27,387 nt of DNA from Candidatus Caldarchaeum sp. (GTDB lineage: Archaea; Thermoproteota; Nitrososphaeria_A; Caldarchaeales; Caldarchaeaceae), in contig JAWBRA010000022.1 in NCBI GenBank assembly GCA_038844785.1, forward strand, positions 1 through 27,387, read 5' to 3'. Below, piece after piece: positions 934 to 19,895 of this stretch (its first letter is position 1; each line of letters starts with the position of its first letter). Both the position numbers and the translations under genes were made by a program. The notes below the pieces were generated by a model that worked only from the letters and a program-made list of their open reading frames with translations, searched no databases and had not been told where the DNA came from.

Positions 934-1851
934 TTACTGCTGTGATAGGGGGTTTTGGTTTACGAGCTTTGAGATTTTTGCGTTTGCCATTCTTCCGTAT
1001 GCTATGGCGATAGCAGTTGCGTCCAACTCTCTTAAACCCATTTGGGCTGTTGCGGTGAAGAGTTCTTTAACAAGTGAGGCGAGGGGCATGGGTGTTTCAT
1101 TATCCTTTGCCATATCCAAAACCAGCCTTAGGTCTTTCACAGCCACGTCTACTGTTGCTACTGGGCTCCACTCGTCTTTTATTATTTTCTCAGCCTTGTA
1201 CTCTGTGACATAGTTCTTGAAAACCGTGTTGTTGAAGATGTCCGTGAGCATTTTTGGGTTTACCCCTAATTTTGAAGCAAGAACCACGCATTCGGAGAAG
1301 CTAGCGATGTTGGTCCACAAATAAAGGTTGAGGATTAGCTTTACCGCCATGGCTGAACCTATGTCGCCGACATAGATTATTTTCTGGCTTGTTGTTTTGA
1401 GAATGGGTGTGACAGTGTCGACGGACTCCTTTCTGCCCGCTGTTAAGATTGTGAGCATAGCCTGCTCCGCCACAAATGTTCCCCCTATCACAGGTGCTTC
1501 AACGAAATCAGCATCTTTAGCCCTGATCTTCTCAGCGATTCTCCTCGTGACTGCTGGAGTGTTTGTGCTCATGTCTACGACTATCTTGTCATGAGATAAC
1601 CCTTCCAACACGGAAGACTCTGTTCCAGTTAACACATACTCTGTAACCTCTGGGTTTAACAGCATGCTGAATACAACGTCTGTAGTTTCGGCTACTTCCT
1701 TGGGGGATTCAGCTAAGCGTGCTCCAAGCTTAGTTAGTTCCAAAGCCTTCGAACGTGTCCTGTTCCAAACAACGACCTCCAAACCGTTATTTAACATGTT
1801 CTTCGCTATCCGCTCGCCCATACGCCCTAAACCGATGAAACCTACCTTCAA
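934..1851 (-). CDS. NAD(P)-dependent beta-hydroxyacid dehydrogenase (3-hydroxyisobutyrate dehydrogenase / tartronate semialdehyde reductase family)
   Basis: GFIGLGRMG Rossmann motif, WNRT, VDMSTN, EAPVIGG (canonical DAPVSGG), catalytic Lys in AVKLILN, and KDL motif. Confidence 0.9.
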   Translation of the reverse strand: MKVGFIGLGRMGERIAKNMLNNGLEVVVWNRTRSKALELTKLGARLAESPKEVAETTDVVFSMLLNPEVTEYVLTGTESSVLEGLSHDKIVVDMSTNTPAVTRRIAEKIRAKDADFVEAPVIGGTFVAEQAMLTILTAGRKESVDTVTPILKTTSQKIIYVGDIGSAMAVKLILNLYLWTNIASFSECVVLASKLGVNPKMLTDIFNNTVFKNYVTEYKAEKIIKDEWSPVATVDVAVKDLRLVLDMAKDNETPMPLASLVKELFTATAQMGLRELDATAIAIAYGRMANAKISKLVNQNPLSQQ

Positions 1852-1952
1852 GTCTACGGGGGATTATTCCCGCACTATTTAAAAAATACTCACTAGTCTC
1901 GAACTCAGCTCTGACCAAAGCTCTGCATGCGTCTGAGACTGCCTAGCTATGC

Positions 1953-2873
1953 TTAGACGACGTATCTCTCCATTTCTAGTATTCTTCTAGCTATCCTAAT
2001 AGTTGCGTCGTCAACCATTATTCCGTCTACTGAAATGGCTCCCTTCCCCTCTTTTGAAGCCTTTTCATAAGCTTGAATAATCTTCCGAGCTCTTTCAACC
2101 TCCTCCCTAGTAGGGGTGTAAATTTTATTACATATTTCTATCTGACTCGGATGTATTACCCATTTACCGTCGAAGCCCAGGCTTTTGGAAAGCTTAGCGG
2201 ATTTTACGAGCCCATCTAAGTCTGTGTAAAGGGCGTATGGGCCGTCTATAGCTTGCAGGCCAGCCGCTGCTGAAGCATTCCTTATGGTGAAAAGCGGGTA
2301 ATGCCATATATGGCCTGGATATTCCTCTGCGAGCCCGCCAATCACCAAAGAAGACATACCGACGCAGGAGGCATAATCGCCTGGCCCAAAGATGAAAGAC
2401 TCCAGCCTTAGGCTGCTGAATGCTATGTCTCCACTGCGCAGTAGCCCCTCAGCTGTCTCTATAATTGCTTCTAATCCTATGCGTGAATCTATGCCGAGCT
2501 CATCTTCTAGAGTTCCTAAGGTTTTATCGACTGTCTCGATGTCGGCTGGTCTGTTGACTTTCGGCACGACTACACAGTCTATCTTACTACCAACTCTGTT
2601 GAAAATGTATTGGAGGTCGTCGTTCCAGAATTTCGTTTCTACCGAATTTATTCTTAAAGCTATGGTCTTCTCTTTTTTCTCGACATTACTTAAAACTTCA
2701 ACAACGTTTTGTCTCGCTGTTTGTTTATGTTGCTCGGGAACGGATGCTTCAAGGTCGAAGATAACTTCGTCCGCCGCAGTCTCCAGAAGTGCTTTCTTCA
2801 TCATCTTAAGGCTGACAGCAGGCGTGACCAACTCGGTTCTTCGAATCCTGCGTCTAACCTGATGACGGCTCAT
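1953..2873 (-). CDS. CitE-like CoA-ester lyase (HpcH/HpaI aldolase/citrate lyase family; malyl-, citramalyl- or beta-methylmalyl-CoA lyase-like)
   Basis: DLEASV (canonical DLED), LRINS, VPKV, IIETAEG, FGPGDY, IDGPY, GFDGKWVIHPSQI and DGIMVD motifs. Start placed at ATG 2873 (MSRHQV). Confidence 0.9.
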   Translation of the reverse strand: MSRHQVRRRIRRTELVTPAVSLKMMKKALLETAADEVIFDLEASVPEQHKQTARQNVVEVLSNVEKKEKTIALRINSVETKFWNDDLQYIFNRVGSKIDCVVVPKVNRPADIETVDKTLGTLEDELGIDSRIGLEAIIETAEGLLRSGDIAFSSLRLESFIFGPGDYASCVGMSSLVIGGLAEEYPGHIWHYPLFTIRNASAAAGLQAIDGPYALYTDLDGLVKSAKLSKSLGFDGKWVIHPSQIEICNKIYTPTREEVERARKIIQAYEKASKEGKGAISVDGIMVDDATIRIARRILEMERYVV

Positions 2874-3121
2874 GACAGCTACACAGACTGTAATCAAATA
2901 TTAAAAATATAAGACGTTTTCCAGAATCTCTTCACGGTCTATGTATCTCAAGTCGGACGTGGTAGCATACACATACGAAGCCGTTGTAGAGCTTACCTGC
3001 GGAGCTGTGGATAACATGTTTTTGGAACGAGCGGTCTCACGAATATTGTAGAAAGGTCTACTGCAAATTTAGCTGTGCTTGGTTTTTAAAATATAAATGT
3101 CTCTCCGAATTTCTATGCAAC

Positions 3122-4411
3122 ATGTCCAGCTACAACGTTGGCGAGATGGGTTTTCCAGAAAACACACCGTTGGGAAGGCTTGATTTTGACAGAATGCTTC
3201 GTGAGAAACTCGCTAGGGCGAGGGAGAAGATGAAGCAGTATGGTCTCAGCGCAATTATTTGCACAACCGATATAAATGTAGGATACTGCACAAATGTTCC
3301 ACCTATTTTTCCTGGGGGAATGGCTGTAGGAGGTAACAGATACGCTATTCTTCCCATCGAAGGTGAGCCTGTGCTCTTTGAAGAATGCAACACTGCCTAT
3401 GTCCTCAAGCATACAATGTCCAGCATTAGAGTTGAATATTCGATACCAGGCTCAGGCGGCCCACATCTAGCCAGCGCCGCCGAAGCACAGGAATATCTAA
3501 CCAGGGAATGGGCTGAACAGTTAGCATCCGTGCTGAGGGAGTATAAGCTTCACAGAGAAAAGGTGGGTATAGATGTCGTCTCGCCCCCGCTGATCGAGGC
3601 TTTGAGGAAAGCTGGGCTGGACGTGACTCCGGACGGTGGCAAAGCTCTTTTAGAGTCTAGGATGGTAAAGACGTCGGTGGAGCTGCAGTGTATAAGGGCT
3701 CTGGCAGCGATTATAGACGGGGTTTTCGCAACACTAGCCAACAACCTTAGACCAGGTGTTACGGAGAAAGAAATATTCGCTAAATGTGTGGCGTACGCAA
3801 TCGAGCAGGGAGTGACGCCTTACGGAGGGTTCATAGTATCAGGCCCGCACACATGGCCTAAGGACAACTCACGCCCGTTTAGCGGTAGGAGAATAAGGCC
3901 TGGGGAGGTAGTGTACGCAGACTTCTTTAACTTCAGCCTGAACGGTTACAAATCATGCTATTACAGGACTTTCGTCGTCGGGAAAGCATGGAAAGAGCTT
4001 AAGGAGACTTACGAAAGAGTTTACAGCTGGCTGAAGGAGGCTGAGAAGAAGGTCAGACCCGGCAATACAACTAAAGACATTGTGGAAAGCTGGCCGGATG
4101 AAGACAGCCTCTGGTCTGAAAAGCCACCCTACATAAAAACAGAGAGGGAGAAACTCTCAACGTTCTGGATGAACATGGGTCACGGGATTGGGTTGGGCCT
4201 GTATGAACCGCCGTTTTTCTGGCGTCCTGTTGCATTAAAATGGCCTCAGAAGCTTGAGGCAAACATGGCTATAGCCCTTGAAACACTTGACTGCACCCCT
4301 GACGGCAAATCAGGTGTAAGAATAGAGGACATGATCATAGTCACTGAGTACGGTCACGAAATTATAAGCAAGTGGCCTGCCGAAGAAATAACGGAGGCCC
4401 CTCTCTTTTAG
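3122..4411 (+). CDS. M24-family (Xaa-Pro peptidase / creatinase fold) hydrolase or lyase with an atypical metal site
   Basis: Creatinase-like N-terminal domain, RMVKT..EL, YAD...GYKSCYYRT, GHGIGLGLYEPP, ALET and GVRIEDMI. AT-rich TATA-like box at ~3085-3097. Confidence 0.88.
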   Translation: MSSYNVGEMGFPENTPLGRLDFDRMLREKLARAREKMKQYGLSAIICTTDINVGYCTNVPPIFPGGMAVGGNRYAILPIEGEPVLFEECNTAYVLKHTMSSIRVEYSIPGSGGPHLASAAEAQEYLTREWAEQLASVLREYKLHREKVGIDVVSPPLIEALRKAGLDVTPDGGKALLESRMVKTSVELQCIRALAAIIDGVFATLANNLRPGVTEKEIFAKCVAYAIEQGVTPYGGFIVSGPHTWPKDNSRPFSGRRIRPGEVVYADFFNFSLNGYKSCYYRTFVVGKAWKELKETYERVYSWLKEAEKKVRPGNTTKDIVESWPDEDSLWSEKPPYIKTEREKLSTFWMNMGHGIGLGLYEPPFFWRPVALKWPQKLEANMAIALETLDCTPDGKSGVRIEDMIIVTEYGHEIISKWPAEEITEAPLF

Positions 4412-4430
4412 TTAGACATCTGCTTGACAG

Positions 4431-5636
4431 CTATGATAAAGATCGTATTCTAGGCTTTGCCTGCGATAACCATGCGAAAAAGAAGGTCAGGGAACATAGG
4501 CAAATGAATAACACGTATAACTGCCATGCAACCCAGTAGCTTAAGATGTCTGCACTGTGGCCGAAAACGAATGGGCCTAAAGCGTTTCCAAAAGCAAGGA
4601 AAAAGTAGGTCATCCCACTTGTTGTGCCAACACGATCTGCACTAAAAAGCTCTGATCCAACCGTGAACACCACCCCAATACTTCCGAAGAGAAAGAAACC
4701 AAGAAAGGCAAGTGAAACTGCAGCAATCCATGTCTCAGACCTAACAGAGAAAAGAAAAACAGCCGAAGCCAATGCTGCAATAGCGCTTGCCAAGAAGAGA
4801 ACCATTACTCGTAGTTTTCTGAAAAACCTATCGGCCAAAACACCAAGACCTATCCTACCCAAAATGCTGAAGAACTGAACCAAGGCCAACATGAATCCGG
4901 CCTCGACAACACTCAAACCTACATCACGCGTAAGAAAGAGAGGTAGATGCGTCAACATGGCGAACATGGAGAAGCCTAAACCGAACGAGCCAAGCAAGAA
5001 CAGAACGGTTCCCCTACTAAACATAGCTCTAAATATGTAGTTCTCAGCCTCTGCCTTCCTCTGGTTGTTCACACGTACATAATTCAGCAAGATCAACGGT
5101 ATAGCTGCAGCGGCTATGGCTGCGGCAGCCATAAACGCTAAATGAGGTTTAGAAGCGACCGCTATCGGTGGTAGAATTAGCGAGGCTAGAGCGCTTCCGC
5201 TGGATGTCCCTGTCTGCTTAATCCCTAAAGCTGTTGCCCTTTCCTTTTGTTCGAAAATTATCGCAACCATTTTTGTGCTGAGCGGTCCCGAAACAGAATA
5301 GCCGATACCCATGATTAGCACGATGACAACCGCGGTAACAAAGTCCTTGACCAATGCCAGTAAAACCAAACCTAACGAAAGTATGCAGATTGAAAAAATC
5401 ACCAAAAGCTTCTCCCTAACCCTATCGGTTAGAAATCCTGAGGGAAGCGCTACGACAGCCGTGGACAGATAAAGCGCGAACATCAGCAGGCCTGCTTTGC
5501 CCGCGGTCAACCCAAGTTCGGAGCTGATTAAAGGCAGCAGGGGTGGTAGTGAAAGGGCGGCGAATGAGCATGTATGCTGATAGACATAGGCAGCGAGCAA
5601 GCATTTTTGCTTGGCAGTCACAATCTTTTTCAGCAC
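4431..5636 (-). CDS. MFS transporter
   Basis: About 12 hydrophobic segments, motif A in both halves (SGFLTDRVREK, GVLADRFFRK) and ERATALGIKQTG. Confidence 0.9.
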   Translation of the reverse strand: MLKKIVTAKQKCLLAAYVYQHTCSFAALSLPPLLPLISSELGLTAGKAGLLMFALYLSTAVVALPSGFLTDRVREKLLVIFSICILSLGLVLLALVKDFVTAVVIVLIMGIGYSVSGPLSTKMVAIIFEQKERATALGIKQTGTSSGSALASLILPPIAVASKPHLAFMAAAAIAAAAIPLILLNYVRVNNQRKAEAENYIFRAMFSRGTVLFLLGSFGLGFSMFAMLTHLPLFLTRDVGLSVVEAGFMLALVQFFSILGRIGLGVLADRFFRKLRVMVLFLASAIAALASAVFLFSVRSETWIAAVSLAFLGFFLFGSIGVVFTVGSELFSADRVGTTSGMTYFFLAFGNALGPFVFGHSADILSYWVAWQLYVLFICLCSLTFFFAWLSQAKPRIRSLS

Positions 5637-5707
5637 CGGTCCCTCAACGTTGAATTGCCAGTGCGGTGGATACTATACGCTCACATAAGCTTTTCTCTTT
5701 TTAACAA

Positions 5708-6224
5708 GGGACTGTCAACTTAGGTCTATGGCCTGGGCCTTCCCATTCGTTGGGGGTGGATAGAGTTGGGGTTGGCCTAGGCCGTCTTATGGTAGAAGTG
5801 TCTTTTTCCGTCTCAGGACGCCTCCGTGGGTGAGGGCTCTCGGCGTTAGGCTGTATGTGGAGGGGCTTAGCCTCAGGAAGGTGGCTGGTATATTGGGCGG
5901 GCTAGGATTCAAGGTAAGCCATGGGTCTGTCAGGGATTGGTTCAACAGGGCTGGTGAAGCCTTCTCATCTATAGCTAGGCGTGGACCGATAGCCGTAGAC
6001 GAGACAGTAATCCATAATCTCGCCCGGATAGGGCTCCATGGTACGTATGAAGGTTCTGGGCTTGAGGAGGAGGGTGGAGACGTTCGGCAGGAGAAACACG
6101 ATAGAGTCTTGGTTCAGCAAACTCAAGAGGAGGATAAAACAGTTCAACACATACCTCCCAACATACAGGCCTAAGGTATCAGAGAAGTGGATAAGGGCAT
6201 GGGTGACCTTAAGTTGACAGTCCC
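5708..6224 (+). mobile_element. Internally deleted, non-autonomous IS6-family element (517 bp)
   Basis: Perfect 15-bp terminal IRs GGGACTGTCAACTTA (5708) and TAAGTTGACAGTCCC (ending 6224). Contains transposase pieces GLSLRKVA...VRDW and IAVDET, then out-of-frame DRAPWY and ETFGRRNTIESWFSKLKRRIKQFN. Confidence 0.9.
5830..6217 (+). pseudogene. IS6 transposase pseudogene
   Basis: The HTH and first catalytic Asp are followed almost directly by the second-Asp motif. The roughly 50-aa segment between them in the intact 9333-9992 protein is missing and the frame is broken. Confidence 0.85.
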
Positions 6225-6278
6225 ACATACTGTGTGAAAAAACTATAAAGACTGGAGAAATCACCCTCCATACGTTCT

Positions 6279-7751
6279 ATGATTTTTGACAGGGTTAAAG
6301 ACACTGACTTGAGGAATAAAATAAAGGATGCTTTAACCACGGTCAGGGATTTTTTCAACGATGGTGTAAGCGTTGCGTTCTCCGGGATGGCTGGAACAGC
6401 TGTGCCGAAAGAGATACCTAAAGCCATAGCTGAGATATCCAGGGAAAGAGGTGAAGGGCTCAGGATAAGAGCGCTTCTCGTGGCCGGAACAACCACGAAC
6501 AGCTTTGAGGAGTGCCTGTCTATGTCCAACGTGGAGGCAAGATACCTCATAGCCGGAGGCGGTGTTATGAGGGAGAGGGTAAACCAAGGGACGATAGAGT
6601 TCTTCGACTGCTGGCTGTCAGAGTATAGCCGGCTTGTGAGACATTCTGTAATTCCTAGCGGGGGTTTAGACATAGCGGTCATAGAGGCGACATACATCGA
6701 TGAGAACGGCAATATCATACCCTCGCTTTCGCTGGACTGCATCCCGGCCATCGTCAGCGCAGCTAAGATGGTTATAGTGGAGGTAAACACTCAGAAACCA
6801 GCTCTCAAAGGAATTCACGACATATACACCCCAGAACCCCGTACACCGATACCAATACGGCATGTGGGTGACCGTGTAGGCGTACCTTACCTGAGAATTC
6901 CTAAGTCAAAGATCTCATCTATAGTAATCAGCGAGGCCCAGGAGGAGTATGCGGCTGCCTACCAGCCTCCTACAAGGTTAGAGGAAAACATTGCACGTAA
7001 CATAATAGAGTTTCTAGAATCCTCTGAAGAGATGAAGGAGAACATGGTGCTCCAAGCGGGTGTCGGGCCTGTAGCAAGCCAGCTCGTTGACGAGCTTCCG
7101 CCGAAACATGTCTCGGTTTGGACCGAGGTGGCTCCAGCGAAGTGGGCGTTGGCAATTCCAGAAAAAATCAACAGCATGAGTACTGCTTGCTTGTACACTT
7201 TGAAGGGTGAGGAAAAGTTCAGGGATGAGTTTTACGAAAGTTTTGACAAGCTTTTCAAACACATAGTGATAAGACCATATGAGGTGACTAACTCGTTGGA
7301 GGTTATATCGAGGCTTCAGGTCATCTGCGTACAACAAGCTCTTGAAGTCGATTTGTACGGTAACACAAACGTCTCCCACATAGACGGGAAAATACATAAC
7401 GGTGTGGGCGGCTCCGGCGACTTTACACGTGCATCGCATCTGACTATTGTAGCCCTACCGTCAACGGCCGCTGGCGGAAGGGTTTCGAGGATAGTACCGT
7501 TTACACTCCACACCGACGTGGTAGAACACGACGTGGACGTTGTTGTCACTGAACAGGGATGGGCGGACTTACGAGGCCTGTCGCCAAGGAGAAGGGCGAG
7601 CCTTATAATCGAGAGATGCGCTCACCCAGACTTCAGAGACGAGCTTTACAAATACCTAACCGCAGTCAAGAAGCTTGAAGGACATGCGCCAGTAGATTTG
7701 GGAGCGTTTGCACAATTCCTTCAAACAAAAGCAAGCATTAAAAAGCATTAG
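6279..7751 (+). CDS. Acetyl-CoA hydrolase/transferase family CoA transferase (AarC/Cat1 succinate CoA-transferase-like)
   Basis: LDIAVIEAT, IVEVN, GIHDIY, LQAGVG, catalytic-Glu motif WTEV, EVDLYGNTN, NGVGGSGDF and VVVTEQGWADLRGLSP. TATA-like CTATAAA at 6243-6249. Confidence 0.92.
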   Translation: MIFDRVKDTDLRNKIKDALTTVRDFFNDGVSVAFSGMAGTAVPKEIPKAIAEISRERGEGLRIRALLVAGTTTNSFEECLSMSNVEARYLIAGGGVMRERVNQGTIEFFDCWLSEYSRLVRHSVIPSGGLDIAVIEATYIDENGNIIPSLSLDCIPAIVSAAKMVIVEVNTQKPALKGIHDIYTPEPRTPIPIRHVGDRVGVPYLRIPKSKISSIVISEAQEEYAAAYQPPTRLEENIARNIIEFLESSEEMKENMVLQAGVGPVASQLVDELPPKHVSVWTEVAPAKWALAIPEKINSMSTACLYTLKGEEKFRDEFYESFDKLFKHIVIRPYEVTNSLEVISRLQVICVQQALEVDLYGNTNVSHIDGKIHNGVGGSGDFTRASHLTIVALPSTAAGGRVSRIVPFTLHTDVVEHDVDVVVTEQGWADLRGLSPRRRASLIIERCAHPDFRDELYKYLTAVKKLEGHAPVDLGAFAQFLQTKASIKKH

Positions 7752-7878
7752 ATGGTTGAGAACTTTTAGGCAGTGACTAAACATGCTTAGATTGCTAGGA
7801 GGTAATGTTGAGGGTCTAAAAACTTACGCATATACATTTGTAAAAATATTTATATCCTATCAATCGTTGAAATCCCAT

Positions 7879-10032: not shown

Positions 10033-10035
10033 TAG

Positions 10036-12133: not shown

Positions 12134-12135
12134 CC

Positions 12136-12639
12136 ATGAAGGTGTTTTCAGGCTATCCCGGGTTGTTTTTCGAAGATGTTAAGCCAGGGCAAACCATTGT
12201 GCATCGGCTAGGAAGAACGGTCACCTTTCAGGATAACCTGTTCTTCTCACACACTCTGCTTAACACAGCATGCCTGCATTTCGACGGAGAATACATGCAG
12301 TTTACAGAGTTTAAACAACCGCTTTTAGTGATGACGATGGTTCTTGGAATAACTTACGGTATAACTTCTGAAGACTTTAAGAATGTTGCAAAGGAGAAAG
12401 AGATTAGAAATCTTAAAATGCTCGCCCCCGTCTTCGACAAAGATACATTACACGTTGTCACAGAGATCTTAGAAACCAGAGAAGAGCCAGACAGGAATGA
12501 TGTTGGTTTAGTCGTAGCCCGTCACAAAACTTACAAGAACAACTTTACTATTCAGGTCATGGAGGTTGACAGAGAGTTTCTTCTCTACAGACGAGATCAT
12601 TCACCGCGCTGGCGTATCCCACTCCAAGAACTACGTTAA
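12136..12639 (+). CDS. MaoC-family (hot-dog) enoyl-CoA hydratase, RipB/Mch-like, subunit 2
   Basis: FFEDVKPGQTIVHRLGRTVT..DN, NTACLHFD and APVFDKDTL. Starts 2 bp after subunit 1. Confidence 0.88.
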   Translation: MKVFSGYPGLFFEDVKPGQTIVHRLGRTVTFQDNLFFSHTLLNTACLHFDGEYMQFTEFKQPLLVMTMVLGITYGITSEDFKNVAKEKEIRNLKMLAPVFDKDTLHVVTEILETREEPDRNDVGLVVARHKTYKNNFTIQVMEVDREFLLYRRDHSPRWRIPLQELR

Positions 12640-12860
12640 CCGTAATTAAACAGCGGCATTTTCAGCAACATACTTAATTGCACAAACAGGCTGGTCCGTG
12701 ATGAATTGAAGATGTTACACGATAAGAGCGATGACAACCGTCATAGAACCACCGGAAGAATGTGAGAAACTACCACCGTAGCCTTGCTACACGTTTTTCA
12801 GCAAGCAACTTTTCACTTCTTACCGGGGCTATGGCTATTAAACCTGAATAAGATAACAAC

Positions 12861-12870
12861 TCTTATATTA
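12861..12870 (+). promoter_or_regulatory. Putative TATA box of the mutase operon
   Basis: TCTTATATTA about 25 nt upstream of GTG 12892, consistent with a leaderless archaeal transcript. Confidence 0.45.
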
Positions 12871-12891
12871 CTGAGGCTTACTGATAAAATT

Positions 12892-14550
12892 GTGAGCTTC
12901 GGAAAATGGTACACGGAGACCCTACAGCCTTACAGAGAAAAACATGGATTGAGGAAGAAACAGTTTTACACTAGAACCTCAAAAATACCGATAAAAGATA
13001 TCTACACACCCAGCGATCTAGGTGAAGGATGGAGTTATGAGGAGAAGCTAGGATATCCCGGTGCGTATCCGTTTACAAGAGGGGTGTACCCTACAGGCTA
13101 CAGGGGGAGGATATGGACGATAAGACAATACGCCGGATACGGCGACCCTGAGGAGACGAACGATATTTTCAAGAAGTTGTTGTCATGGGGTCAAACAGGT
13201 TTAAGTGTTGCCTTTGACTTACCAACCCAGCTAGGATACGACCCCGACAATCCGCTCGCATATGGCGAAGTGGGGAGAGTAGGTGTCTCGGTCCCAACGC
13301 TTAAGGAAATGGAGTTAATTTTTCAAGACATCCCGCTTGAAAAAGTTTCAGTCTCCTTTACAATAAATGCCACAGCACCCATAATGCTGGCTATGTTCAT
13401 AGCTGCAGCCGAGAAATCAGGTGTTCCGATGAGGTCTTTAGCGGGAACAGTGCAGAACGACAACCTGAAAGAACTTAGTGCGAGAAATGCTTTCATCTTC
13501 CCTCCAAAGCCATCCCTTAAGCTAAGCGTTGACGTAATAGAGTTCTGCGTAAAAAATATGCCGAGGTTCGTTCCGATAAACGTCTGCGAAGCCCATTACC
13601 GGGAGGCCGGCGCCAGCGCCACGACCGCAGCCGGCCTCGCTTTTTCCAACGCTATAGCTTATGTCGGATCCGCCCTTAAGAGGGGTCTAGACGTAGACAG
13701 CGTAGCTCCGAGAATAGCGTTTTACACATACTCACACATAGACTTCTTCGAGGAAGTTGCCAAGCTAAGAGCGATGAGGAGGATTTGGGCTAGGCTTTTA
13801 AGAGAACGGTTCGGGGCTAAAGACCCAGCCTCCATGGCTCTTAAGATAGGAACCGCTGTTGGTGGCAGCGTTTACACAGTTGAGGAGCCGCTGATAAATA
13901 TCGTGAGGGGAACGATCGGTGCTTTGGCTGCTGTGCTTGGAGGGGTGCAGTCGATGAATATTGCATGCTTCGACGAGGCGTACGCAATTCCAACACCACA
14001 GTCGCTGAAACTCTCCGTTCGGACCCAACAAATAATAGCCTACGAGAGCGGTGTGGCTGATGTTGTGGATCCGTTGGGCGGCTCTTACTATGTTGAGTGG
14101 CTGACTGATGAAATAGAGAAAAAGATTACAGAAGTGATTAGCAAAATAGAGGACGTGGGGGGTGCGGTGGAAGCTATTGAGAAAGGCCTTTACCATCAGA
14201 TAATTTCAGCAGAAGCCTACAATTTTCAGAAAGAAGTGGAAAATGGGGACATACCAGTAGTGGCCCACAACATCTTTAAAGAAACAGCTAGTGATGAACA
14301 GGAAATCGAATACTATAGGTTCAGGAAAGAAGTCTACGATAAGGCTCTTGAACGTTTGGAGAAAACTAAGCTGAACAGAGACTCGGCGAGGGTGAAAACA
14401 ACGTTAAAGGCTTTAAGAGATGCGGCTGAATCTGGTGAAAACGTTATGCCAGCCATAATAGACGCTGTGAAAGCTTATGCAACAGTAGGCGAGATCTGTG
14501 AGGTGTTGCGAGATGTATATGGCGAATACAAAGAGCCTTCACCGATATAG
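12892..14550 (+). CDS. Adenosylcobalamin-dependent acyl-CoA mutase, large substrate-binding subunit (methylmalonyl-CoA mutase family, divergent pocket)
   Basis: PGAYPFTRGVY, WTIRQYAG, GLSVAFDLPTQLGYD, GEVGRVGV, TINATA, GTVQND, FFEEVAKLRAMRR, DEAYAIPT and DPLGGSYYVEWLT. GTG 12892 chosen as start. Confidence 0.95.
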   Translation: MSFGKWYTETLQPYREKHGLRKKQFYTRTSKIPIKDIYTPSDLGEGWSYEEKLGYPGAYPFTRGVYPTGYRGRIWTIRQYAGYGDPEETNDIFKKLLSWGQTGLSVAFDLPTQLGYDPDNPLAYGEVGRVGVSVPTLKEMELIFQDIPLEKVSVSFTINATAPIMLAMFIAAAEKSGVPMRSLAGTVQNDNLKELSARNAFIFPPKPSLKLSVDVIEFCVKNMPRFVPINVCEAHYREAGASATTAAGLAFSNAIAYVGSALKRGLDVDSVAPRIAFYTYSHIDFFEEVAKLRAMRRIWARLLRERFGAKDPASMALKIGTAVGGSVYTVEEPLINIVRGTIGALAAVLGGVQSMNIACFDEAYAIPTPQSLKLSVRTQQIIAYESGVADVVDPLGGSYYVEWLTDEIEKKITEVISKIEDVGGAVEAIEKGLYHQIISAEAYNFQKEVENGDIPVVAHNIFKETASDEQEIEYYRFRKEVYDKALERLEKTKLNRDSARVKTTLKALRDAAESGENVMPAIIDAVKAYATVGEICEVLRDVYGEYKEPSPI

Positions 14551-14974
14551 GAGGAAACCAAGAATATTGCTTGCTAAAGGCGGTCTTGACGGACATGACA
14601 GAGGCCTCAGGGTTCTCGCCTTGGCTTTGAGGGATTCAGGGTTTGAAGTGGTTTACCTTGGAATGAGGGTTACCGCAGAGACCGTACTTAACGCCGCCAT
14701 AGAAGAGGATGTGGACGTTATCGGGTTGAGTTTCCTTTCAGGAAGCCATCTGCCCTACTTGGAGAAGCTGATGCGGCTGATAAAGAACGAGCGTATAGAG
14801 AGACAGTTCAAAATAGTGGTGGGCGGAGTCATTCCACGGAAGGACATAGATGAACTATATGCTATGGGTGTTGACAAAGTTTTTCCTGTGGGGTCAAAGT
14901 TGGGCGACATAATTTCATACTTGGAATCGCTGGGAGTGGAAGATGATGAGAAAAAACAAAGTAACAACCTTTGA
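14513..14974 (+). CDS. Acyl-CoA mutase small, cobalamin-binding subunit
   Basis: DxHxxG motif GLDGHDRG, GLSFLSGSH and VVGGVIP. Overlaps the end of the large subunit. Start is ATG 14513 (after GAGGTG) or 14519. Confidence 0.95.
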   Translation: MYMANTKSLHRYRRKPRILLAKGGLDGHDRGLRVLALALRDSGFEVVYLGMRVTAETVLNAAIEEDVDVIGLSFLSGSHLPYLEKLMRLIKNERIERQFKIVVGGVIPRKDIDELYAMGVDKVFPVGSKLGDIISYLESLGVEDDEKKQSNNL

Positions 14975-15854
14975 AGACGCTCTGCAACACGTCAAAGATG
15001 GATGCCGGGTTGCGATAGGAGGTTTTCAGCTTGCTTCAAGACCTATGACGTTGCTGAGGATGGTGATGAAAAACCATATCAGCGGGCTTACGGTGGTTTC
15101 TCCACCAAGCGGGCTCGACGTTGATATGCTCATAGCAGCCGGAGTTGTTAAGAGGATAATCACATCCTATGTGGGCGGTGAGACGATAGCAGGCATAGGG
15201 CCTGTCTTCAGAAGAGCTGTCGAGAACAACGAGATTGATGTCCGCGAATACGATACAGGCATGTTAATAGCCGCCTTGAGAGCTGAAAGCGAGGGGCTGC
15301 CTTTCGCGCCATGGCGTGGAGGATTAGGTACCTCGATACAGCAAGTAAACCCCGATCTAAAAACTTTCACAGATCCCATAACTGGTTCAAGGCTGCTCGC
15401 GGTCCCGGCGTTATCGGCTGACGTAGCTTTGATACATGCATCCTTGGCAGATGAATATGGAAACATACAACACTTGAGCCACCCGTTGCTGGACAGGCTA
15501 ATAGCCTCTGCAAGCAAGAAAGTGATCGTGGAAGTTGAGAAGATAGTGAGTAACGAATACATCAGGGCCCATTACTGGAGAACTTCAATACCTAACTACA
15601 TGGTTGAAGCGGTTGTCGTAACACCGTATGGAGCACACCCGACATCCAGCCCTGGGTTCTACACAACCGATATCGAACATCTTGCTCACGAGTATGTACC
15701 AGCCGCGAACGCGTGGTTGAAGGGAGACCAAGAACCGTTGAAAAGATATCTCAGCAAATATGTTTACGGCCCGAAAGATCATTGGGAGTATCTGCAGCTC
15801 ATAGGTTTTGAAAAACTGTTTTCTTTAGACAGTATCTATCATGATTCAGTTTAA
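14943..15854 (+). CDS. Class I CoA-transferase-fold protein, subunit A (GctA/CatI/IpdA-like)
   Basis: VKDG..VAIGGF...RPM, DVDMLIAAG, GLPFAPWRGGLGT, DVALIHA..ADEYGN, VIVEVEKIV and PYGAHPTS. Confidence 0.9.
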   Translation: MMRKNKVTTFEDALQHVKDGCRVAIGGFQLASRPMTLLRMVMKNHISGLTVVSPPSGLDVDMLIAAGVVKRIITSYVGGETIAGIGPVFRRAVENNEIDVREYDTGMLIAALRAESEGLPFAPWRGGLGTSIQQVNPDLKTFTDPITGSRLLAVPALSADVALIHASLADEYGNIQHLSHPLLDRLIASASKKVIVEVEKIVSNEYIRAHYWRTSIPNYMVEAVVVTPYGAHPTSSPGFYTTDIEHLAHEYVPAANAWLKGDQEPLKRYLSKYVYGPKDHWEYLQLIGFEKLFSLDSIYHDSV

Positions 15855-16623
15855 ACCATCTTGGAGGGAGATCCTAGCGACGTTCATATCACGCCAAATC
15901 CATGACAACACTGTCGTAGCCGTCGGTACAGGGTTGCCCGTCCCTAGGGCAGGCGTCCTGCTCGCCCACTTTACACATGCTCCAAACATGACGGTTGTTC
16001 TAGGTCCGTATGCGTGCAACCTTCTACCGTTCAAACAAGTGTTCTCTTTCGAGTTTTTCGCAGACTGGAGATACTCCAGATACGCGGAGGCCACAGTGGG
16101 CTTAGACGAGATAATGGGAAAAACAAACTTCTTTGACGTATTTTTTGTTAGCGGTCTACAGGTCGACAAGTTTGGGAACGTTAACCTGTTTGGAATTAGA
16201 GATGGCAATGTTTACAGGCTTAAGGGTCCAGGCCCTATAGGCGTGGCTTCGTTGACTACAAACTCTCGCAGGTTCATCATCTACCTTGAGAGACATGATG
16301 CAAGAACCTTGGTCGATAGATGCGACCTCGTGAGCGCCATGGGATGGTGTAGGGACAACATATACCGTGGTGAGCTTGGTCTCCGTGGAGGGCCCGAGTA
16401 CATCGTGACACCTCTAGCCGTATTTTCATTCGACACGCCGACACGCCAAGCTAGACTAAAGTATTTGATGCCCGGGGTCACGGTCGACCAGGCTGTAGCT
16501 CAAACAGGATTCACATTTGACTATTCGGATGTGAAAGAGCTTCAACCACCGTCTGACGAAGAACTAAGAGTTTTGAGGGAGAAGGTCGACCCCGAGGGAA
16601 AGCTTAGACTGGGAGGAATCTAG
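15841..16623 (+). CDS. Class I CoA-transferase-fold protein, subunit B (GctB/CatJ/IpdB-like)
   Basis: VGTGLP, THAPN, SGLQVDKFGNVN, IVTPLAVFSF, PGVTVDQAVAQTGF and PPSDEELRVLREKVDP. Confidence 0.9.
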   Translation: MIQFKPSWREILATFISRQIHDNTVVAVGTGLPVPRAGVLLAHFTHAPNMTVVLGPYACNLLPFKQVFSFEFFADWRYSRYAEATVGLDEIMGKTNFFDVFFVSGLQVDKFGNVNLFGIRDGNVYRLKGPGPIGVASLTTNSRRFIIYLERHDARTLVDRCDLVSAMGWCRDNIYRGELGLRGGPEYIVTPLAVFSFDTPTRQARLKYLMPGVTVDQAVAQTGFTFDYSDVKELQPPSDEELRVLREKVDPEGKLRLGGI

Positions 16624-17342
16624 CCCGATGTCTGGGCCAACCAGCTCTTAACTAAGTCGGGAACCTTAGTGTTGAGCTCCATCTTACTGCCTGATAATGT
16701 TACTCGCCCCATCTCCAGCACATAGATATGGTCAGCAAGCTGCACCGCGGCCCTAATGTTCTGGTCCACCAGCAGGATTGTTAACCCCTTCTCTTTAAGC
16801 CTCAAAATCTCCGAATAAATCTCCTTCGCCACTTTCGGCGCGAGGCCTGCTGTCGGCTCGTCTAAAAATAACATTTTCGGCTCGACCATTAAAAGCCTGC
16901 CGAGCTCTAGCATTCGTTGCTCTCCCCCGCTCAAGCTTCCAGCCTTTTGACCCCTCTTTTTCCTTAAGAAAGGATAATGGTCGTACACTGACTCCAGCGC
17001 GTTGGCAACCCTTTTTTTGTCCCTTTTGAACAACCATGCTCCAAGCTTCAAATTCTCCTCGACAGTCATCTCAGGGAAAATCTCCCTCTCCTGAGTCAAG
17101 TACGCTATCCCCATCCGAAGGAGCTTGTAAGGTTTTTCGCCAGTTATTATCCTATTATCGTAGATTACATTTCCACTAGAAGGCTTAATAAAACCATATA
17201 TAGTCTTCAACAACGTAGATTTGCCGGCTCCGTTAGGGCCTATCACGACGGTTATCTCCCTATCTTTGACCTCCATGTTTACATCATCCAGAACTATCAC
17301 ACCCTTAATGTAGCTCGCGCTAAGCTTGCTTACCACCAACAT
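16620..17342 (-). CDS. livF: Liv-type ABC transporter ATP-binding protein (LivF-like)
   Basis: GPNGAGKST, MTVEENL, LSGGEQRML and LDEPTAGLAP. ATG at 17342. Confidence 0.92.
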   Translation of the reverse strand: MLVVSKLSASYIKGVIVLDDVNMEVKDREITVVIGPNGAGKSTLLKTIYGFIKPSSGNVIYDNRIITGEKPYKLLRMGIAYLTQEREIFPEMTVEENLKLGAWLFKRDKKRVANALESVYDHYPFLRKKRGQKAGSLSGGEQRMLELGRLLMVEPKMLFLDEPTAGLAPKVAKEIYSEILRLKEKGLTILLVDQNIRAAVQLADHIYVLEMGRVTLSGSKMELNTKVPDLVKSWLAQTSG

Positions 17343-17343
17343 A

Positions 17344-18072
17344 TCAAACACCCAAGTACGATTCAATAACTTCTGCTGACAGCGTAACCTCGCTGGGAAC
17401 GCCTTCAGCGATTTTTTTCCCGCTGTTCATGGCTACCAGCTTGTCCGAGACCGATGTTATGGCTTTCATGTCGTGGCTTACTATCAGAAATGACGTACCC
17501 CCTATCTTCATATCACGAACAGTTGAGAGAATTGTCTCCTTGATATTGGGATGCACTCCTGCCAGAGGCTCATCCATCAAGACAACTTTCGGATCTGTAA
17601 TTAAAGCCCTAGCTATCTCAAGCAGCTTTTGCTGCCCGCCTGAGAGCTCGGAGGCGAGCATGTTTTCCATACCTGTCAGCCCAACAAGCTTTAGAAGTTT
17701 TGAGGCCTTGTTATGCATTTCAGCACCCCCCAGCTCGGTTGAGGCCATAGGCACTAGCACATTTTCAAGCACAGTCATGTTTTTAAATAGCTTGGGTATC
17801 TGAAAGGTTCTCGCGAGGCCCATCCTCATCAACACGTGGGGGCGGAGGCCAGTAACCCTTACACCTTCAAGCTCAACATACCCGCTGTCGGGTTTGATGA
17901 GACCTGATATCAGGCTGAGCAGCGTTGTTTTTCCAGCCCCGTTAGGGCCTATCAACCCAACTATTTCGCAGCGGCCAACCTCTATATCTACGTTATCGAC
18001 AGCAGTCACTCCGCCGAACTTCTTCGTCATACCTAAAGCCCTTAACACCTTACCTCTTGACAAAACCTTCAC
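17344..18072 (-). CDS. livG: Liv-type ABC transporter ATP-binding protein (LivG-like)
   Basis: FGGVTAVD, GPNGAGKTT, ARTFQ, LSGGQQKLLEIARAL, MDEP and SHDM. Exact start uncertain. Confidence 0.92.
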   Translation of the reverse strand: MKVLSRGKVLRALGMTKKFGGVTAVDNVDIEVGRCEIVGLIGPNGAGKTTLLSLISGLIKPDSGYVELEGVRVTGLRPHVLMRMGLARTFQIPKLFKNMTVLENVLVPMASTELGGAEMHNKASKLLKLVGLTGMENMLASELSGGQQKLLEIARALITDPKVVLMDEPLAGVHPNIKETILSTVRDMKIGGTSFLIVSHDMKAITSVSDKLVAMNSGKKIAEGVPSEVTLSAEVIESYLGV

Positions 18073-19039
18073 CTCTCAGCTTAACAATCTTACGTTTCCG
18101 TGCAAACCATTCCACACCTCCTACGACTCCACGGGGAGCGAATCTAACTGTCAACGTAAGCAACACACCAAACAGGAGAAAGTGAACTTCAGGATAGTTT
18201 ACTAACAGGTTTATCTTGGATATGTAGAAGACTATGCTCCCGATAACAGGGCCGAGCACCGTTCCCGCACCACCTATCAAGACTACTATGTACATCTCGA
18301 TTGTAGTAGTTATCTGGAAAACGGTTTCAGGGTTTACATAGGTTGAAAGCCATGCGAAGATCCCGCCAACAAAGCCTGTGAAGAAAGCGCTGAAAGTGAA
18401 GACTAGCCTTTTGTATCTCGTTGTGTTCACACCCATCGATTCCGCCGCCTCCTCATTTTCTTTTATCGCCCTAAGCTCAACTCCTATGATGGATTTTATT
18501 ATAAGATAAAACAATGCCAGAAGACCTGTAAAAACCGCTAAAAGAGTATAGTATGCTTCAAAGAGCTCATAGCTTGTCAGAATCACCATGCCGTATGACC
18601 CTCCCAAAAAACCCATTTTCAAAAAGATCAGCCGAATGGTTTCGGCCAATCCTAAGGTAGCGATGGCAAAGTAAATCCCCCTAGTTCTCAACAAAGGAAG
18701 GGACAGCGCATATGCCAAGCCTGCAACAAACACCCCTGCTAGAAGAGGCGCTAGAGGCATCGGAATGCCTAAAAACTTGTAGAAGACAGCAACAGCGTAA
18801 GCTCCTAAACCATAGAATGCAACCTGTCCAAAATTCACGTAGCCTAGCAGGCCGTAAAAGAGGTTAAGAGCCATCCCTAAGCATGCGTATCTGAGAATCT
18901 CAAAAGCAATGGCTGTTTGGTACGTGGTTAAAATGAATGGGAAGATTATGAAGAGTATTGTTACTGCGATTAGAGGAGCGAGCTCCAAAAACCGTATTGG
19001 CGACACCAGTCTCAACGGCTTAGCCAAAGAGCTTTTCAC
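18050..19039 (-). CDS. livM: Liv-type ABC transporter permease (LivM-like)
   Basis: GYVNFGQVAFYGLGAY, RGIYFAIATL, AIKENEEAAESMGVN and IGGAGTVLGP. Confidence 0.9.
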   Translation of the reverse strand: MKSSLAKPLRLVSPIRFLELAPLIAVTILFIIFPFILTTYQTAIAFEILRYACLGMALNLFYGLLGYVNFGQVAFYGLGAYAVAVFYKFLGIPMPLAPLLAGVFVAGLAYALSLPLLRTRGIYFAIATLGLAETIRLIFLKMGFLGGSYGMVILTSYELFEAYYTLLAVFTGLLALFYLIIKSIIGVELRAIKENEEAAESMGVNTTRYKRLVFTFSAFFTGFVGGIFAWLSTYVNPETVFQITTTIEMYIVVLIGGAGTVLGPVIGSIVFYISKINLLVNYPEVHFLLFGVLLTLTVRFAPRGVVGGVEWFARKRKIVKLRGEGFVKR

Positions 19040-19895
19040 CTCTTACCACAATCGCCGAAACTATAATGGCCAACGCTAGACCTGTAGAGAACACCGGGTC
19101 TGTCAGAACAGAGAAAACAGACTCTATTGCTCCGAACGCTATCGCTGAAGCGAGGACGCCGAAAGGGTTTGTAACACCGCCGACGAGAACTATGGCGAAG
19201 GATTTCAGAGTGTACAGAGACCCCATGAAAGGATCGACGTGGGCTATGCTCCATGAAATCAGCCCGCCTGCAACGGAGGCTAAAACTATTCCTATGACAA
19301 AGCCTAAGAGATAAACCATGTCCATGTTTATTCCAACAAGTGCCGCGGCACGTCTGTTCTGGATGACGGCACGCAGGGCTGAACCCCAGTAGCTTCTGTA
19401 AAGGAAGATGAATAGAATGGCGACGAACGTTATAGCTATCGAGAAAGCTAGCAATCGGCTTCCAACAAGAGTTACGGGCCCTAAGGTCACATGGCCAAGC
19501 TCCAACGCAACCCCCCTGACGTCAACAGACCATATGAGGATGATTATGTTTATCATTATTAGTGAAAGTCCGAAAAGAGCAAGAAGACTCGCTAAAATTT
19601 CAATCTTAGCCAGCTGCCTGACAACAGAGAAGTATAGTATGGTTGCAAGCCCTAATCCAATCAAGGCCGAGGCTATGATGGCTGTCAAGACCTGCACCGA
19701 AAGCTCGCCACCTCGCATCATGTTTATGGCCCAGTATGAGGCATAAGCGCCCACCATAAGGAACTCTCCGTGAGCGACGTTAACAAGCCTTAAAACACCC
19801 CACGTAACCATCAGCCCTAAACTCGCCAGCGCGTAAATACCTCCTTGTAGAAGACCAAGTACTAGGGATTGCATCAGCAGCTCTGCAGACAGCAC
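19020..19895 (-). CDS. livH: Liv-type ABC transporter permease (LivH-like)
   Basis: GGIYALASLGL, VNVAHGEFLMVGAY, RAVIQNRRAAALVGIN and FAIVLVGG. GTG 19895 chosen because TTTAA lies ~26-30 nt upstream. Confidence 0.9.
   Translation of the reverse strand: MLSAELLMQSLVLGLLQGGIYALASLGLMVTWGVLRLVNVAHGEFLMVGAYASYWAINMMRGGELSVQVLTAIIASALIGLGLATILYFSVVRQLAKIEILASLLALFGLSLIMINIIILIWSVDVRGVALELGHVTLGPVTLVGSRLLAFSIAITFVAILFIFLYRSYWGSALRAVIQNRRAAALVGINMDMVYLLGFVIGIVLASVAGGLISWSIAHVDPFMGSLYTLKSFAIVLVGGVTNPFGVLASAIAFGAIESVFSVLTDPVFSTGLALAIIVSAIVVRGEKLFG

Follow-up and report, generated by a model that had tools for sequence, protein, structure and literature searches.

The window analysed here, which is the entire 27.4-kb contig C22 of the genome of a hot-spring Candidatus Caldarchaeum (G000; 1.74 Mb, 95.5% complete), carries a split B12-dependent acyl-CoA mutase that, judged from its sequence, is not a plain methylmalonyl-CoA mutase (MCM). 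The genes assembled around this enzyme probably form an accessory catabolic cluster for a dicarboxylyl-CoA other than methylmalonyl-CoA, in which case the mutase would represent a new specificity class of B12 acyl-CoA mutases. Its clade keeps the radical machinery and the carboxylate clamp, rebuilds the remaining pocket, and travels with a pair of proteins related to glutaconate CoA-transferase (the GctAB-like pair) that lacks the catalytic glutamate. Because this company is constant, the clade is a well-defined candidate for a new reaction, and mutase and pair together are a candidate two-enzyme unit.

The characterised specificities of such mutases presumably amount to a handful (methylmalonyl-, isobutyryl-, ethylmalonyl-, 2-hydroxyisobutyryl- and pivalyl-CoA, together with proposed hexylmalonyl and phenylsuccinyl enzymes). 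Should the window enzyme be an ordinary alkylmalonyl-CoA mutase, the outcome would be modest, with a known family gaining one more member, from an accessory island of an archaeon; the cluster would be categorically new only if its reaction proves unprecedented. Our literature searches found no description of an archaeal cluster of this kind or of the mutase signature described below. Every substrate, the direction of the mutase and the decarboxylase role discussed here are inferred from sequence.

The mutase and its pocket

The large subunit (MutL) matches PF01642 with 625 bits and the small subunit (MutS) matches PF02310 with 96 bits, and the B12-binding motif DGHDRG (DxHxxG) is visible in the small-subunit sequence, which places the enzyme in the B12 acyl-CoA mutase superfamily. 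The small-subunit gene overlaps MutL upstream and the GctA-like gene downstream. In the large subunit, the carboxylate-binding tyrosine (in RQYAGYG) and arginine (in SARNAF) fall in the same alignment columns as their counterparts in human MCM, and Gln, His and the segment NIACFDEA are retained at their MCM positions. For residue roles and for the numbering Tyr89 and Arg207 we assume those of P. shermanii MCM.

Other blocks that are otherwise near-invariant have been altered: SISGYH has become NVCEAH, LRFHTQT reads LKIGTAV, SFFF reads AFYT and QNDILKEY reads QNDNLKEL. The GYH and RFHxQT elements of the MCM pocket are therefore missing, with EAH and KIGTAV in their place. The residues that these two elements lost are conserved at 96-100% in 113 MCM-type comparators, and the altered positions presumably line the substrate and adenosyl pocket, as in MCM structures. 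In an alignment of 121 sequences (the 120 best database matches plus the second mutase of the genome, found on contig C6), the signature YAQNREAH is shared by six sequences that are 74-100% identical, and the canonical signature (GYH) is present in 109. At 32 positions, this clade lacks the residue that at least 93% of the 113 comparators share. An earlier reading of this DNA from its letters alone (the sequence-only reading) had described the mutase as divergent and had set as a refuting case a plain MCM whose product the neighbouring enzymes do not use; the six-member signature and the 32 departures bear out the description, and the rebuilt GYH/RFHxQT pocket speaks against the plain MCM. In trees, the clade sits on a long stem within the Tyr/Arg group, nearest to other lineages with odd pockets (P0008/P0009 and P0235), a placement to which long-branch effects possibly contribute.

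Assuming for Tyr243 its structural role in MCM, replacement by Ala would create the space at C2 that a dimethyl- or alkyl-methylmalonyl substrate requires. The pocket is opened at the RFHxQT motif too, which suggests a substituent larger than, or different from, a single methyl group.

A HMMER search of 1.84 billion representatives provided a wider view, and the 150 best representatives at 50% identity were surveyed. Tyr and Arg are both retained in 67 of the 150. The canonical pocket (Tyr243, His244, His and Gln) is found in 24 of these 67, a non-canonical pocket in 43, and in 20 of the 67 all three of positions 243, 328 and 330 are changed; an acidic residue at position 242 is seen in just one. 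On the evidence of this survey, the window enzyme belongs, as one lineage, to a large and so far uncharacterised radiation of mutases that bind a carboxylate and have a rebuilt pocket. With 43 of 67 Tyr/Arg representatives carrying a non-canonical pocket, much mutase chemistry must be uncharted, and the cluster is a thermostable, genomically anchored entry point to it. A plasmid tblastn search with the mutase returned only 'methylmalonyl-CoA mutase' names and no named ethylmalonyl-CoA mutase (Ecm), and the homologue on a Streptomyces canus plasmid has a canonical pocket and no evident cluster with crotonyl-CoA carboxylase/reductase (Ccr). Looking up the clusters of ten representatives yielded no names of functions, and a search of the phylum with P0008 retrieved only G000 itself and one canonical enzyme.

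Two other known activities were tried and rejected. We take Ile and Gln at the positions of Tyr89 and Arg207, together with Asp117, to be the marks of 2-hydroxyisobutyryl-CoA mutase; in the alignment with 4r3u, which is the best solved match of the mutase (510 bits), the window enzyme has Tyr, Arg and Ala in the columns of these diagnostic residues. Isobutyryl-CoA mutase is presumably marked by Phe and Gln replacing Tyr and Arg, and the window enzyme is of the Tyr/Arg type. The genome contains two PF01642 genes, and the window mutase is 49% identical to the paralogue on contig C6 (C6:12816-15636; L001, L029, L132). This paralogue has Phe/Gln for Tyr/Arg and adjoins the single MeaB gene of the genome, and for these two reasons it looks like an isobutyryl-CoA-type enzyme. 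Mutases of the C6 type are the common type across the order, and the signature FQGYHHQ is present in 18 of 63 tree rows. Two sister-genus loci (L033 and L034; G015:C2 and G016:C26) encode mutase paralogues of yet another type, which are very long-branched in the tree and have Val, Gly and Gln at the positions of Tyr89, Arg207 and His244.

The genome as a whole also bears on whether the window enzyme could be an ordinary MCM. In that case it would serve a valine- or propionate-type route, in which Liv, the acyl-CoA dehydrogenase, MaoC and HIBADH lead via methylmalonate semialdehyde and methylmalonyl-CoA to succinyl-CoA and ScpC. Such a role is suggested by its being the only Tyr/Arg-type mutase of the genome (the other is Phe/Gln), by the HIBADH, acyl-CoA dehydrogenase, MaoC, Liv and ScpC families, which suit valine catabolism, and by a 2-oxoacid dehydrogenase complex of the branched-chain type (BCKDH-type) that is added to the related cluster L035 described below. 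It is contradicted by the many positions off the 113-relative consensus, GYH and RFHxQT included, by the absence of the enzyme from most genomes of the genus, and by missing pathway partners (propionyl-CoA carboxylase, epimerase and an adjacent MeaB). Specifically, no PF01039 carboxyltransferase and no TIGR03081 epimerase were found in the 95.5%-complete genome, and there is no MeaB beside the window mutase, the only copy being the one next to the C6 enzyme. A housekeeping MCM role is thus unlikely, and we regard the valine- or propionate-type route as highly improbable. A variant in which the enzyme is an MCM specific for (S)-methylmalonyl-CoA was dropped, as its substrate would have the methyl group facing away from the adenosyl radical.

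No Ccr was found above cut-off in the genome (the best TIGR01751 match reaches 90 bits vs 379), and the same holds for glyoxylate carboligase. Without carboxylase, epimerase and Ccr, methyl- and ethylmalonyl-CoA could therefore not be made from propionyl- and crotonyl-CoA in this organism. The sequence-only reading had remarked that the window holds neither Ccr nor epimerase; none was found genome-wide either, nor a carboxyltransferase, and this fits a substrate taken from outside. The genome does have three electron-transfer flavoprotein (ETF) gene pairs, an adenosyltransferase, malate synthase and four aldehyde dehydrogenases.

Gene content and companions of the mutase

Gene families were assigned by Pfam and NCBIfam scans, and solved relatives were ranked by bit score. 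A Pfam family was found for 18 of the 20 open reading frames (ORFs) scanned between 934 and 19970, and the remaining two are scraps related to insertion sequences (ISs). All gene families that the sequence-only reading had named are present and intact. The span that it had given, 934-19895, is correct at its start, whereas the last gene ends at 19970. The features are as follows.

934 to 1851, minus strand: beta-hydroxyacid dehydrogenase of the HIBADH / tartronate-semialdehyde-reductase type (PF03446 and PF14833)
1953 to 2897, minus strand: CitE/HpcH acyl-CoA C-C lyase (PF03328 and PF15617)
3122 to 4411, plus strand: M24 hydrolase with creatinase/prolidase fold (PF00557)
4431 to 5636, minus strand: MFS transporter (PF07690)
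5708 to 6224, plus strand: truncated IS6-family copy with inverted end (orf114, the N-terminus of the transposase)
6279 to 7751, plus strand: ScpC/YgfH-type (succinate) CoA-transferase (PF13336 and PF02550)
7783 to 9279, plus strand: Liv-type (HAAT) binding protein LivK with a long N-terminal anchor (PF13458)
9326 to 10033, minus strand: complete IS6-family insertion sequence (DDE_Tnp_IS240 transposase and inverted ends)
10393 to 11598, plus strand: acyl-CoA dehydrogenase (ACAD) 1, 401 residues (three ACAD domains)
11609 to 12133, plus strand: MaoC1, hot-dog hydratase subunit 1 (PF19315, PF01575)
12136 to 12639, plus strand: MaoC2, hot-dog hydratase subunit 2 (PF01575)
12784 to 14550 as ORF, database form P0001 from 12892, plus strand: acyl-CoA mutase large subunit MutL (PF01642)
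14498 to 14974, plus strand: B12-binding small subunit MutS (PF02310 and TIGR00640)
14943 to 15854, plus strand: GctA-like subunit, CoA-transferase fold (PF01144)
15841 to 16623, plus strand: GctB-like subunit without catalytic Glu (match to GctB 1poi)
16620 to 19970, minus strand: ABC transporter genes LivF, LivG, LivM and LivH (PF00005 twice and PF02653 twice)

The GctA-like gene follows the small-subunit gene directly, overlapping or abutting it, in G000 and in the two related loci G006 and L035 introduced below. Its best solved relatives are IpdA 6coj (125 bits), GctA 1poi (119 bits) and AibA 5mzw (119 bits), and the GctB-like subunit scores 92 bits against GctB 1poi and 43 bits against AibB. 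The catalytic glutamate of class I CoA-transferases, which we take to be Glu54 in GctB, is lacking from the window pair. The GctB-like subunit has an alignment gap at the 'ES' of 1poi_B, its residue in the catalytic column is Gly (Glu occupies this column in 35 of 114 family members), and the ExG motif occurs in none of its 32 closest relatives. Because this Glu is absent, the pair is probably not a CoA-transferase. The sequence-only reading had counted two CoA-transferase-fold systems in the region; the ScpC-type enzyme stands as one, and the GctAB-like pair probably has to be struck as a transferase. Eight fetched regions around distant GctAB-like homologues contained no mutase nearby. A function for such a protein is described in PMC7756340, where AibA/AibB is a 3-methylglutaconyl-CoA decarboxylase with the corresponding Glu replaced and works with Ala, Ser, Asn or Val at that position.

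The gene grouping is more than chance, because 14 genes recur in the same order in G006, a genome of another species in the same genus (loci L003 and L050). These genes are MFS, ScpC, LivK, ACAD1, MaoC1, MaoC2, MutL, MutS, the GctA-like and GctB-like genes, and LivF, G, M and H, at 70-89% identity (MFS 70%, ScpC 79%, LivK 86%, ACAD1 85%, LivFGMH 74-81%). The CitE-HIBADH pair of G006 lies on a separate contig (C24), and no M24 orthologue was found in this genome. In the metagenome-assembled genome (MAG) of G006, MaoC1 is split in two frames (L003 8900-9416), and it is intact in the near-identical metagenome contig L050; the split is probably an assembly error of the MAG.

A more distant version is found on a 247-kb metagenome contig (L035), in which the mutase is 74% identical and the 10 kb on either side include MFS, ScpC (58%), one MaoC (40%), MutL, MutS, a GctAB-like pair, LivF, LivK (71%) and LivH. 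This cluster additionally holds E2, E1 beta and E1 alpha of the BCKDH-type 2-oxoacid dehydrogenase, M24 (67%) and HIBADH (55%), the last of these beside M24 and LivK. ACAD1, MaoC2 and CitE were not seen within 10 kb on either side. Beside MaoC and ScpC, at L035:7128-7919, is a gene for a 263-residue protein that is a C-terminal citrate-synthase domain alone and resembles citryl-CoA lyase; it may fill the lyase role of the window CitE. Co-occurrence elsewhere had been set as a test by the sequence-only reading, and the genes do occur together in G006 and partly in L035.

Other relatives show which genes can part from the mutase. The genome G007 (86% complete) carries the block MaoC2-MaoC1-ACAD1-ScpC-(broken MFS)-HIBADH-HIBADH2-CitE (ScpC 84% and ACAD1 88% identical), with M24 about 23 kb away near another Liv system, and no mutase match was found in this 86%-complete genome. 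CitE orthologues (73-76% identity) are present in 4 of 13 genomes of the genus, and M24 orthologues of at least 83% identity in 3 of 13, plus a fragment; the M24 copies of G007 and G001 are 83-84% identical, and both genomes have CitE and M24 with the mutase absent. Claims that bound these genes to the mutase do not survive the comparison: CitE, HIBADH and M24 lie on a separate contig or are missing in G006 and occur in the mutase-less G007 and G001, and the ACAD/MaoC/ScpC/CitE part forms a unit without mutase in G007. Across G000, G006 and L035, the mutase is always accompanied by ScpC, the GctAB-like pair, a MaoC and a Liv system; ACAD1, MaoC2, CitE, HIBADH and M24 are attached more loosely.

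The region is an accessory one, as the sequence-only reading had stated. The mutase is intact in 2 of 13 genomes of the genus (G000 and G006) and broken in G009, which makes two intact copies and one broken copy of the clade among 76 genomes of the order; among 401 sampled genomes of the phylum, only G000 and G006 have it. The G009 locus (L004; G009:C29) is a decayed remnant that is 94-99% identical to the window, with joints at window positions 1155>2917 and 3479>13622. One deletion runs from HIBADH into the CitE-M24 intergenic region, with loss of CitE, another runs from mid-M24 to mid-MutL, and LivF, M and H are broken. The same joints are present in a 7182-base contig of metagenome run X9.

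These distributions also raise the possibility that no single pathway exists and that rearrangement and IS activity joined two or three independent modules, which would be (1) mutase, GctAB-like pair and Liv, (2) ScpC, ACAD and MaoC, and (3) CitE, HIBADH and M24. Module 2 occurs with CitE and HIBADH but without mutase in G007, where M24 is near another Liv system, G006 has CitE-HIBADH elsewhere and no M24, two IS6 copies flank ScpC-LivK in the window, and one relative has lost 10 kb of the region. However, three lineages, one of them with a mutase that is only 74% identical, keep ScpC, MaoC, the mutase and the GctAB-like pair in one place, and G000 and G006 agree in gene order all the way from MFS to LivH. 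We judge this multi-module reading very unlikely.

Candidate routes through the cluster

For the chemistry of the cluster, we tentatively favour a route in which a substituted succinate is rearranged and then decarboxylated; this route uses the invariant gene set and needs neither carboxylase nor epimerase. A substituted succinate or a related branched dicarboxylate would be imported via the MFS transporter, the Liv-type ABC transporter or both, and the ScpC-type transferase would load the diacid onto CoA. The mutase would then move the thioester carbon to convert the ester to its isomer. The translationally coupled, Glu-less GctAB-like pair is predicted to decarboxylate this isomer, acting either on a substituted malonyl-CoA directly or, once the ACAD has oxidised it, on a glutaconyl-type ester. 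The branched acyl- or enoyl-CoA so formed might proceed via ACAD1, the MaoC pair and the beta-hydroxyacid dehydrogenase, and the CitE-HIBADH pair could serve as a loosely attached lyase or 3-hydroxyacid module. The BCKDH-type E1 alpha/beta and E2, HIBADH and M24 in the L035 cluster fit traffic of branched acyl-CoA. The Sbm-ScpB-ScpC system of E. coli is a precedent for the combination of CoA-transferase, mutase and decarboxylation. A similar logic, continued by beta-oxidation, appears in two papers, on the iaa operon (CoA-transferase, mutase, CO2 loss; PMC8360864) and on alkylsuccinate degradation, which follows the same order of CoA-transferase, mutase, decarboxylation and beta-oxidation (PMC9576796).

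The remaining enzymes were compared with known relatives. ACAD1 has AQI at the C-terminal YEG site and a Glu ahead of the conserved Arg in NVERT. Taking Glu254 of IVD and Thr255/Glu376 of MCAD as reference positions, its catalytic base would be in the IVD/LCAD position, an arrangement for branched or bulky substrates. YEG variants among ACADs are described in PMC8360864. The third-best NCBIfam match of ACAD1 is non-decarboxylating glutaryl-CoA dehydrogenase. MaoC1 scores 87 bits with PF19315 (MC_hydratase) vs 54 with PF01575, and its RipB_Ich score of 109 bits, like the 88 bits of MaoC2, is far under the cut-off of 340, so that neither qualifies as the RipB/Ich of itaconate degradation. In a simple alignment to the hydratase motif, MaoC1 retains Asp and has Tyr at the position of His, and MaoC2 retains His and has Asn at that of Asp; the two may be functional only as a heteromer.

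By sequence, CitE appears closest to malyl-CoA/beta-methylmalyl-CoA lyases rather than to RipC or CLYBL. Its best solved relative is the lyase of this kind 5ugr (201 bits), followed by 4l9y (169 bits) and RipC 3qll (111 bits). Among NCBIfam models, citE (187 bits) and RipC_Ccl (170.5 bits, cut-off 375) both remain under cut-off, and the haloarchaeal Mcl model reaches 128 vs 500. The motifs EAIIETAEG and GPGDYA, which we take to contain the Mg-binding Glu and Asp, are conserved in three orthologues. The best NCBIfam match of the HIBADH-type enzyme is 2-hydroxy-3-oxopropionate reductase (212 bits, cut-off 397). Likewise, the ScpC-type transferase reaches 379 bits with TIGR03458 (cut-off 659) and 361 with the ScpC model NF053853 (cut-off 500), which is similarity at the level of the family only. 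The best solved relatives of M24 are prolidases at no more than 70 bits, and its protein atlas label is only 'M24 family metallopeptidase'; relative to the usual ligand positions, the second metal-binding Asp of prolidase is apparently Cys (SCYYRT), and the His and both Glu ligands are seemingly kept. LivK has as its best solved relative 8wch, a 'probable Leu/Ile/Val-binding protein' (101 bits).

Several points weigh against the rearrangement and decarboxylation of a substituted succinate. The decarboxylase role of the GctAB-like clade rests on likeness to AibAB, which uses a vinylogous (glutaconyl-type) acid rather than a malonyl-type ester, and IpdAB, an equally close relative of the A subunit, is a ring-opening hydrolase. 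The scores of MaoC1 toward mesaconyl-CoA hydratase/Ich and of CitE toward Mcl form the pattern predicted by the opposite direction, in which the tail resembles the ethylmalonyl-CoA (EMC) pathway, and the favoured route gives CitE only a vague role. No thiolase or 3-hydroxyacyl-CoA dehydrogenase was found within the cluster, and no ACAD1 within 10 kb on either side in L035. A simple alkyl substituent would leave the new polar residues, Glu242 and the Asn of QNDN, unexplained. Finally, in this strain the coupling of the genes may have been broken by the IS that separates LivK from ACAD1.

The EMC-like direction, which is that of the sequence-only reading, would start from an imported alkyl- or dimethyl-malonate, whose CoA ester the mutase would convert to an alkylsuccinyl-CoA, and ACAD, the MaoC pair and CitE would then yield an acyl-CoA plus glyoxylate, or acetyl-CoA plus a 2-oxoacid. 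All four enzyme types of the Ecm-Mcd-Mch-Mcl series are present, and this route gives the best account of the Mch/Mcl likeness (MaoC1 and MaoC2 match the Ich and mesaconyl-CoA hydratase models, and CitE is nearest 5ugr). Malate synthase could take up the glyoxylate. The change of Tyr243 to Ala would suit a quaternary C2, and no epimerase was found. On the other hand, as no carboxylase or Ccr was found, the route requires free alkylmalonate, for which a natural source is not evident, and it leaves the Glu-less pair attached to the mutase without a role. In G006, CitE lies on a separate contig, and no CitE was seen within 10 kb in L035. A dimethylmalonyl-CoA substrate, the specific proposal of the sequence-only reading, is compatible with the Tyr243 change as read from the sequence, is singled out by nothing else, and likewise has no evident natural source of dimethylmalonate. 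Two published comparisons also bear on this direction. The mutase-less G007 unit would degrade substituted succinates directly, like the itaconate/methylsuccinate cluster of PMC12290011, and the mutase would be a second entry. ACAD1, with 401 residues and AQI, differs from methylsuccinyl-CoA dehydrogenase, for which PMC8360864 reports GEG. Overall, we consider a malonate-first route unlikely, although it is a serious rival of the favoured one.

A further alternative is a shift between linear and branched C5 skeletons, in which glutaryl-, 2-hydroxyglutaryl- or gamma-glutamyl-CoA would be interconverted with methylsuccinyl-, beta-methylmalyl- or 3-methylaspartyl-CoA, linking carbon from glutarate, glutamate or lysine to mesaconyl-CoA chemistry or crotonyl-CoA. 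Glutaconate CoA-transferases, the family of the partner pair, act on C5 diacids, and the glutaryl-CoA dehydrogenase match of ACAD1 points the same way. The enlarged pocket and the rare acidic residue 242 (1 of 67) could bind OH or NH3+ or fit an extra CH2, the region includes a Liv-type amino-acid importer and an M24 hydrolase, and the MaoC and CitE genes resemble Mch and Mcl. Yet Tyr and Arg stay placed for a carboxylate bound directly to the migration origin, and no mutase reaction of this kind is known to us. As an account of the cluster, such a shift seems quite unlikely. It is unlikely, too, that the cluster combines a never-described 1,2-shift (e.g. methylsuccinyl-CoA to or from glutaryl-CoA, or 2-hydroxyglutaryl-/gamma-glutamyl-CoA to or from beta-methylmalyl-/3-methylaspartyl-CoA) with a cofactor-free decarboxylase derived from glutaconate CoA-transferase. 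If true, the combination would connect C5 dicarboxylates or amino acids, branched and linear, to the central acyl-CoA metabolism of archaea by a route free of carboxylase. A leucine route in which the mutase replaces methylcrotonyl-CoA carboxylase was dropped, because no chemically possible shift exists.

Related systems and surrounding DNA

Several characterised systems resemble parts of the cluster. With the EMC pathway it shares four enzyme types, which lie in one place in the window: a B12 mutase with Tyr/Arg for carboxylate binding, an ACAD, a hydratase of the MaoC type and a CitE-type lyase that is most similar to Mcl. In contrast to that pathway, no Ccr or epimerase was found here, the mutase is split and has another pocket, the short ACAD carries AQI in place of GEG, two proteins make up the hydratase, the lyase is not a constant neighbour, and importers suggest catabolism. 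The succinate-to-propionate operon Sbm(ScpA)-ScpB-ScpC of E. coli similarly unites a mutase, an ScpC-family transferase and a decarboxylase in one unit. It differs in that the candidate decarboxylase here has the GctAB fold instead of the crotonase fold, no MeaB/ArgK is adjacent and the pocket is not that of MCM.

The itaconate/methylsuccinate cluster (Ict, Ich, Ccl and methylsuccinyl-C4-CoA dehydrogenase), as described in PMC12290011, combines a CoA-transferase, an ACAD, an Ich-like hydratase and a CitE-family lyase for a branched C5 diacid, and the mutase-less unit of G007 has exactly this make-up. The window differs in its transferase, which is of the ScpC/acetyl-CoA-hydrolase family, in Ich and Ccl scores that are under cut-off, in the lack of an MmgE/PrpD isomerase, and in the added mutase module.

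The iaa operon (IaaL, IaaGH, IaaF) of anaerobic indoleacetate degradation, compared here by description, has a binding protein, a CoA-transferase, a B12 mutase (there for a bulky substituted succinyl/malonyl-CoA) and an ACAD with altered YEG, and PMC8360864 reports the operon in an archaeon too. By the same source, IaaF has GGG without a base, as opposed to the AQI and IVD-type Glu of ACAD1, IaaL belongs to another transferase family, and the ring-opening genes were not seen in the window. AibA/AibB (PMC7756340) is likewise a GctAB-fold heterodimer with the transferase Glu replaced; AibB has Cys at the site where the window protein has Gly, and the similarity of the latter to AibB is lower than to GctB (43 vs 92 bits). 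The hexylmalonyl-CoA mutases ActD and MatB of actinonin and matlystatin biosynthesis, also compared by description, share the split, HCM-like architecture and act on a larger alkylmalonyl-CoA. They differ in being biosynthetic and in working with Ccr and an epimerase. Distant relatives in thermophilic archaea are noted in PMC5719088.

Two IS6-family copies in opposite orientation bracket ScpC and LivK, with ends that resemble GGCACTGTCAAC. The complete copy, between LivK and ACAD1, has a transposase at 9333-9992 and inverted ends at 9326 and 10013-10032. The truncated copy, between MFS and ScpC, has an inverted end at 5708-5727 with 2 mismatches to the end of the complete copy. Neither copy is present in G006, and the gap between LivK and ACAD1 is 1113 bases here vs 85 in L003. 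Near-identical DNA is present in contigs of hot-spring metagenome runs from several studies. In four runs, the depth of metagenome contigs over both IS regions is in 10- to 100-fold excess and reaches hundreds of times that of the flanks, and metagenome contigs stop at 6224, the edge of the truncated copy. All four metagenome runs consist of contigs, so that uncovered parts of the window in X9, X12 and X13 are no evidence of absence.

One of these runs, X13, is a metatranscriptome library from sediment. Its contigs cover 14389-16117 (the 3' end of the mutase gene, the small subunit and the GctAB-like genes) at 96-98% identity, with variant letters in common with X9, and also lie on ScpC (6290-6711) and ACAD1 (10417-11075) at 85-87%. 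They provide a weak hint of expression in relatives, with DNA carry-over conceivable.

Downstream of the cluster, at 20010-25129, are genes for a luciferase-like oxidoreductase (LLM; probably dependent on F420 or FMN), UPF0047, a second ACAD (ACAD2), Alba, a PqqD-like protein and a DUF2070 membrane protein. The stretch from LLM to ACAD2 is retained in L004 at 96-98% identity, and DUF2070 and PqqD are retained in G006, about 18 kb away from the cluster.

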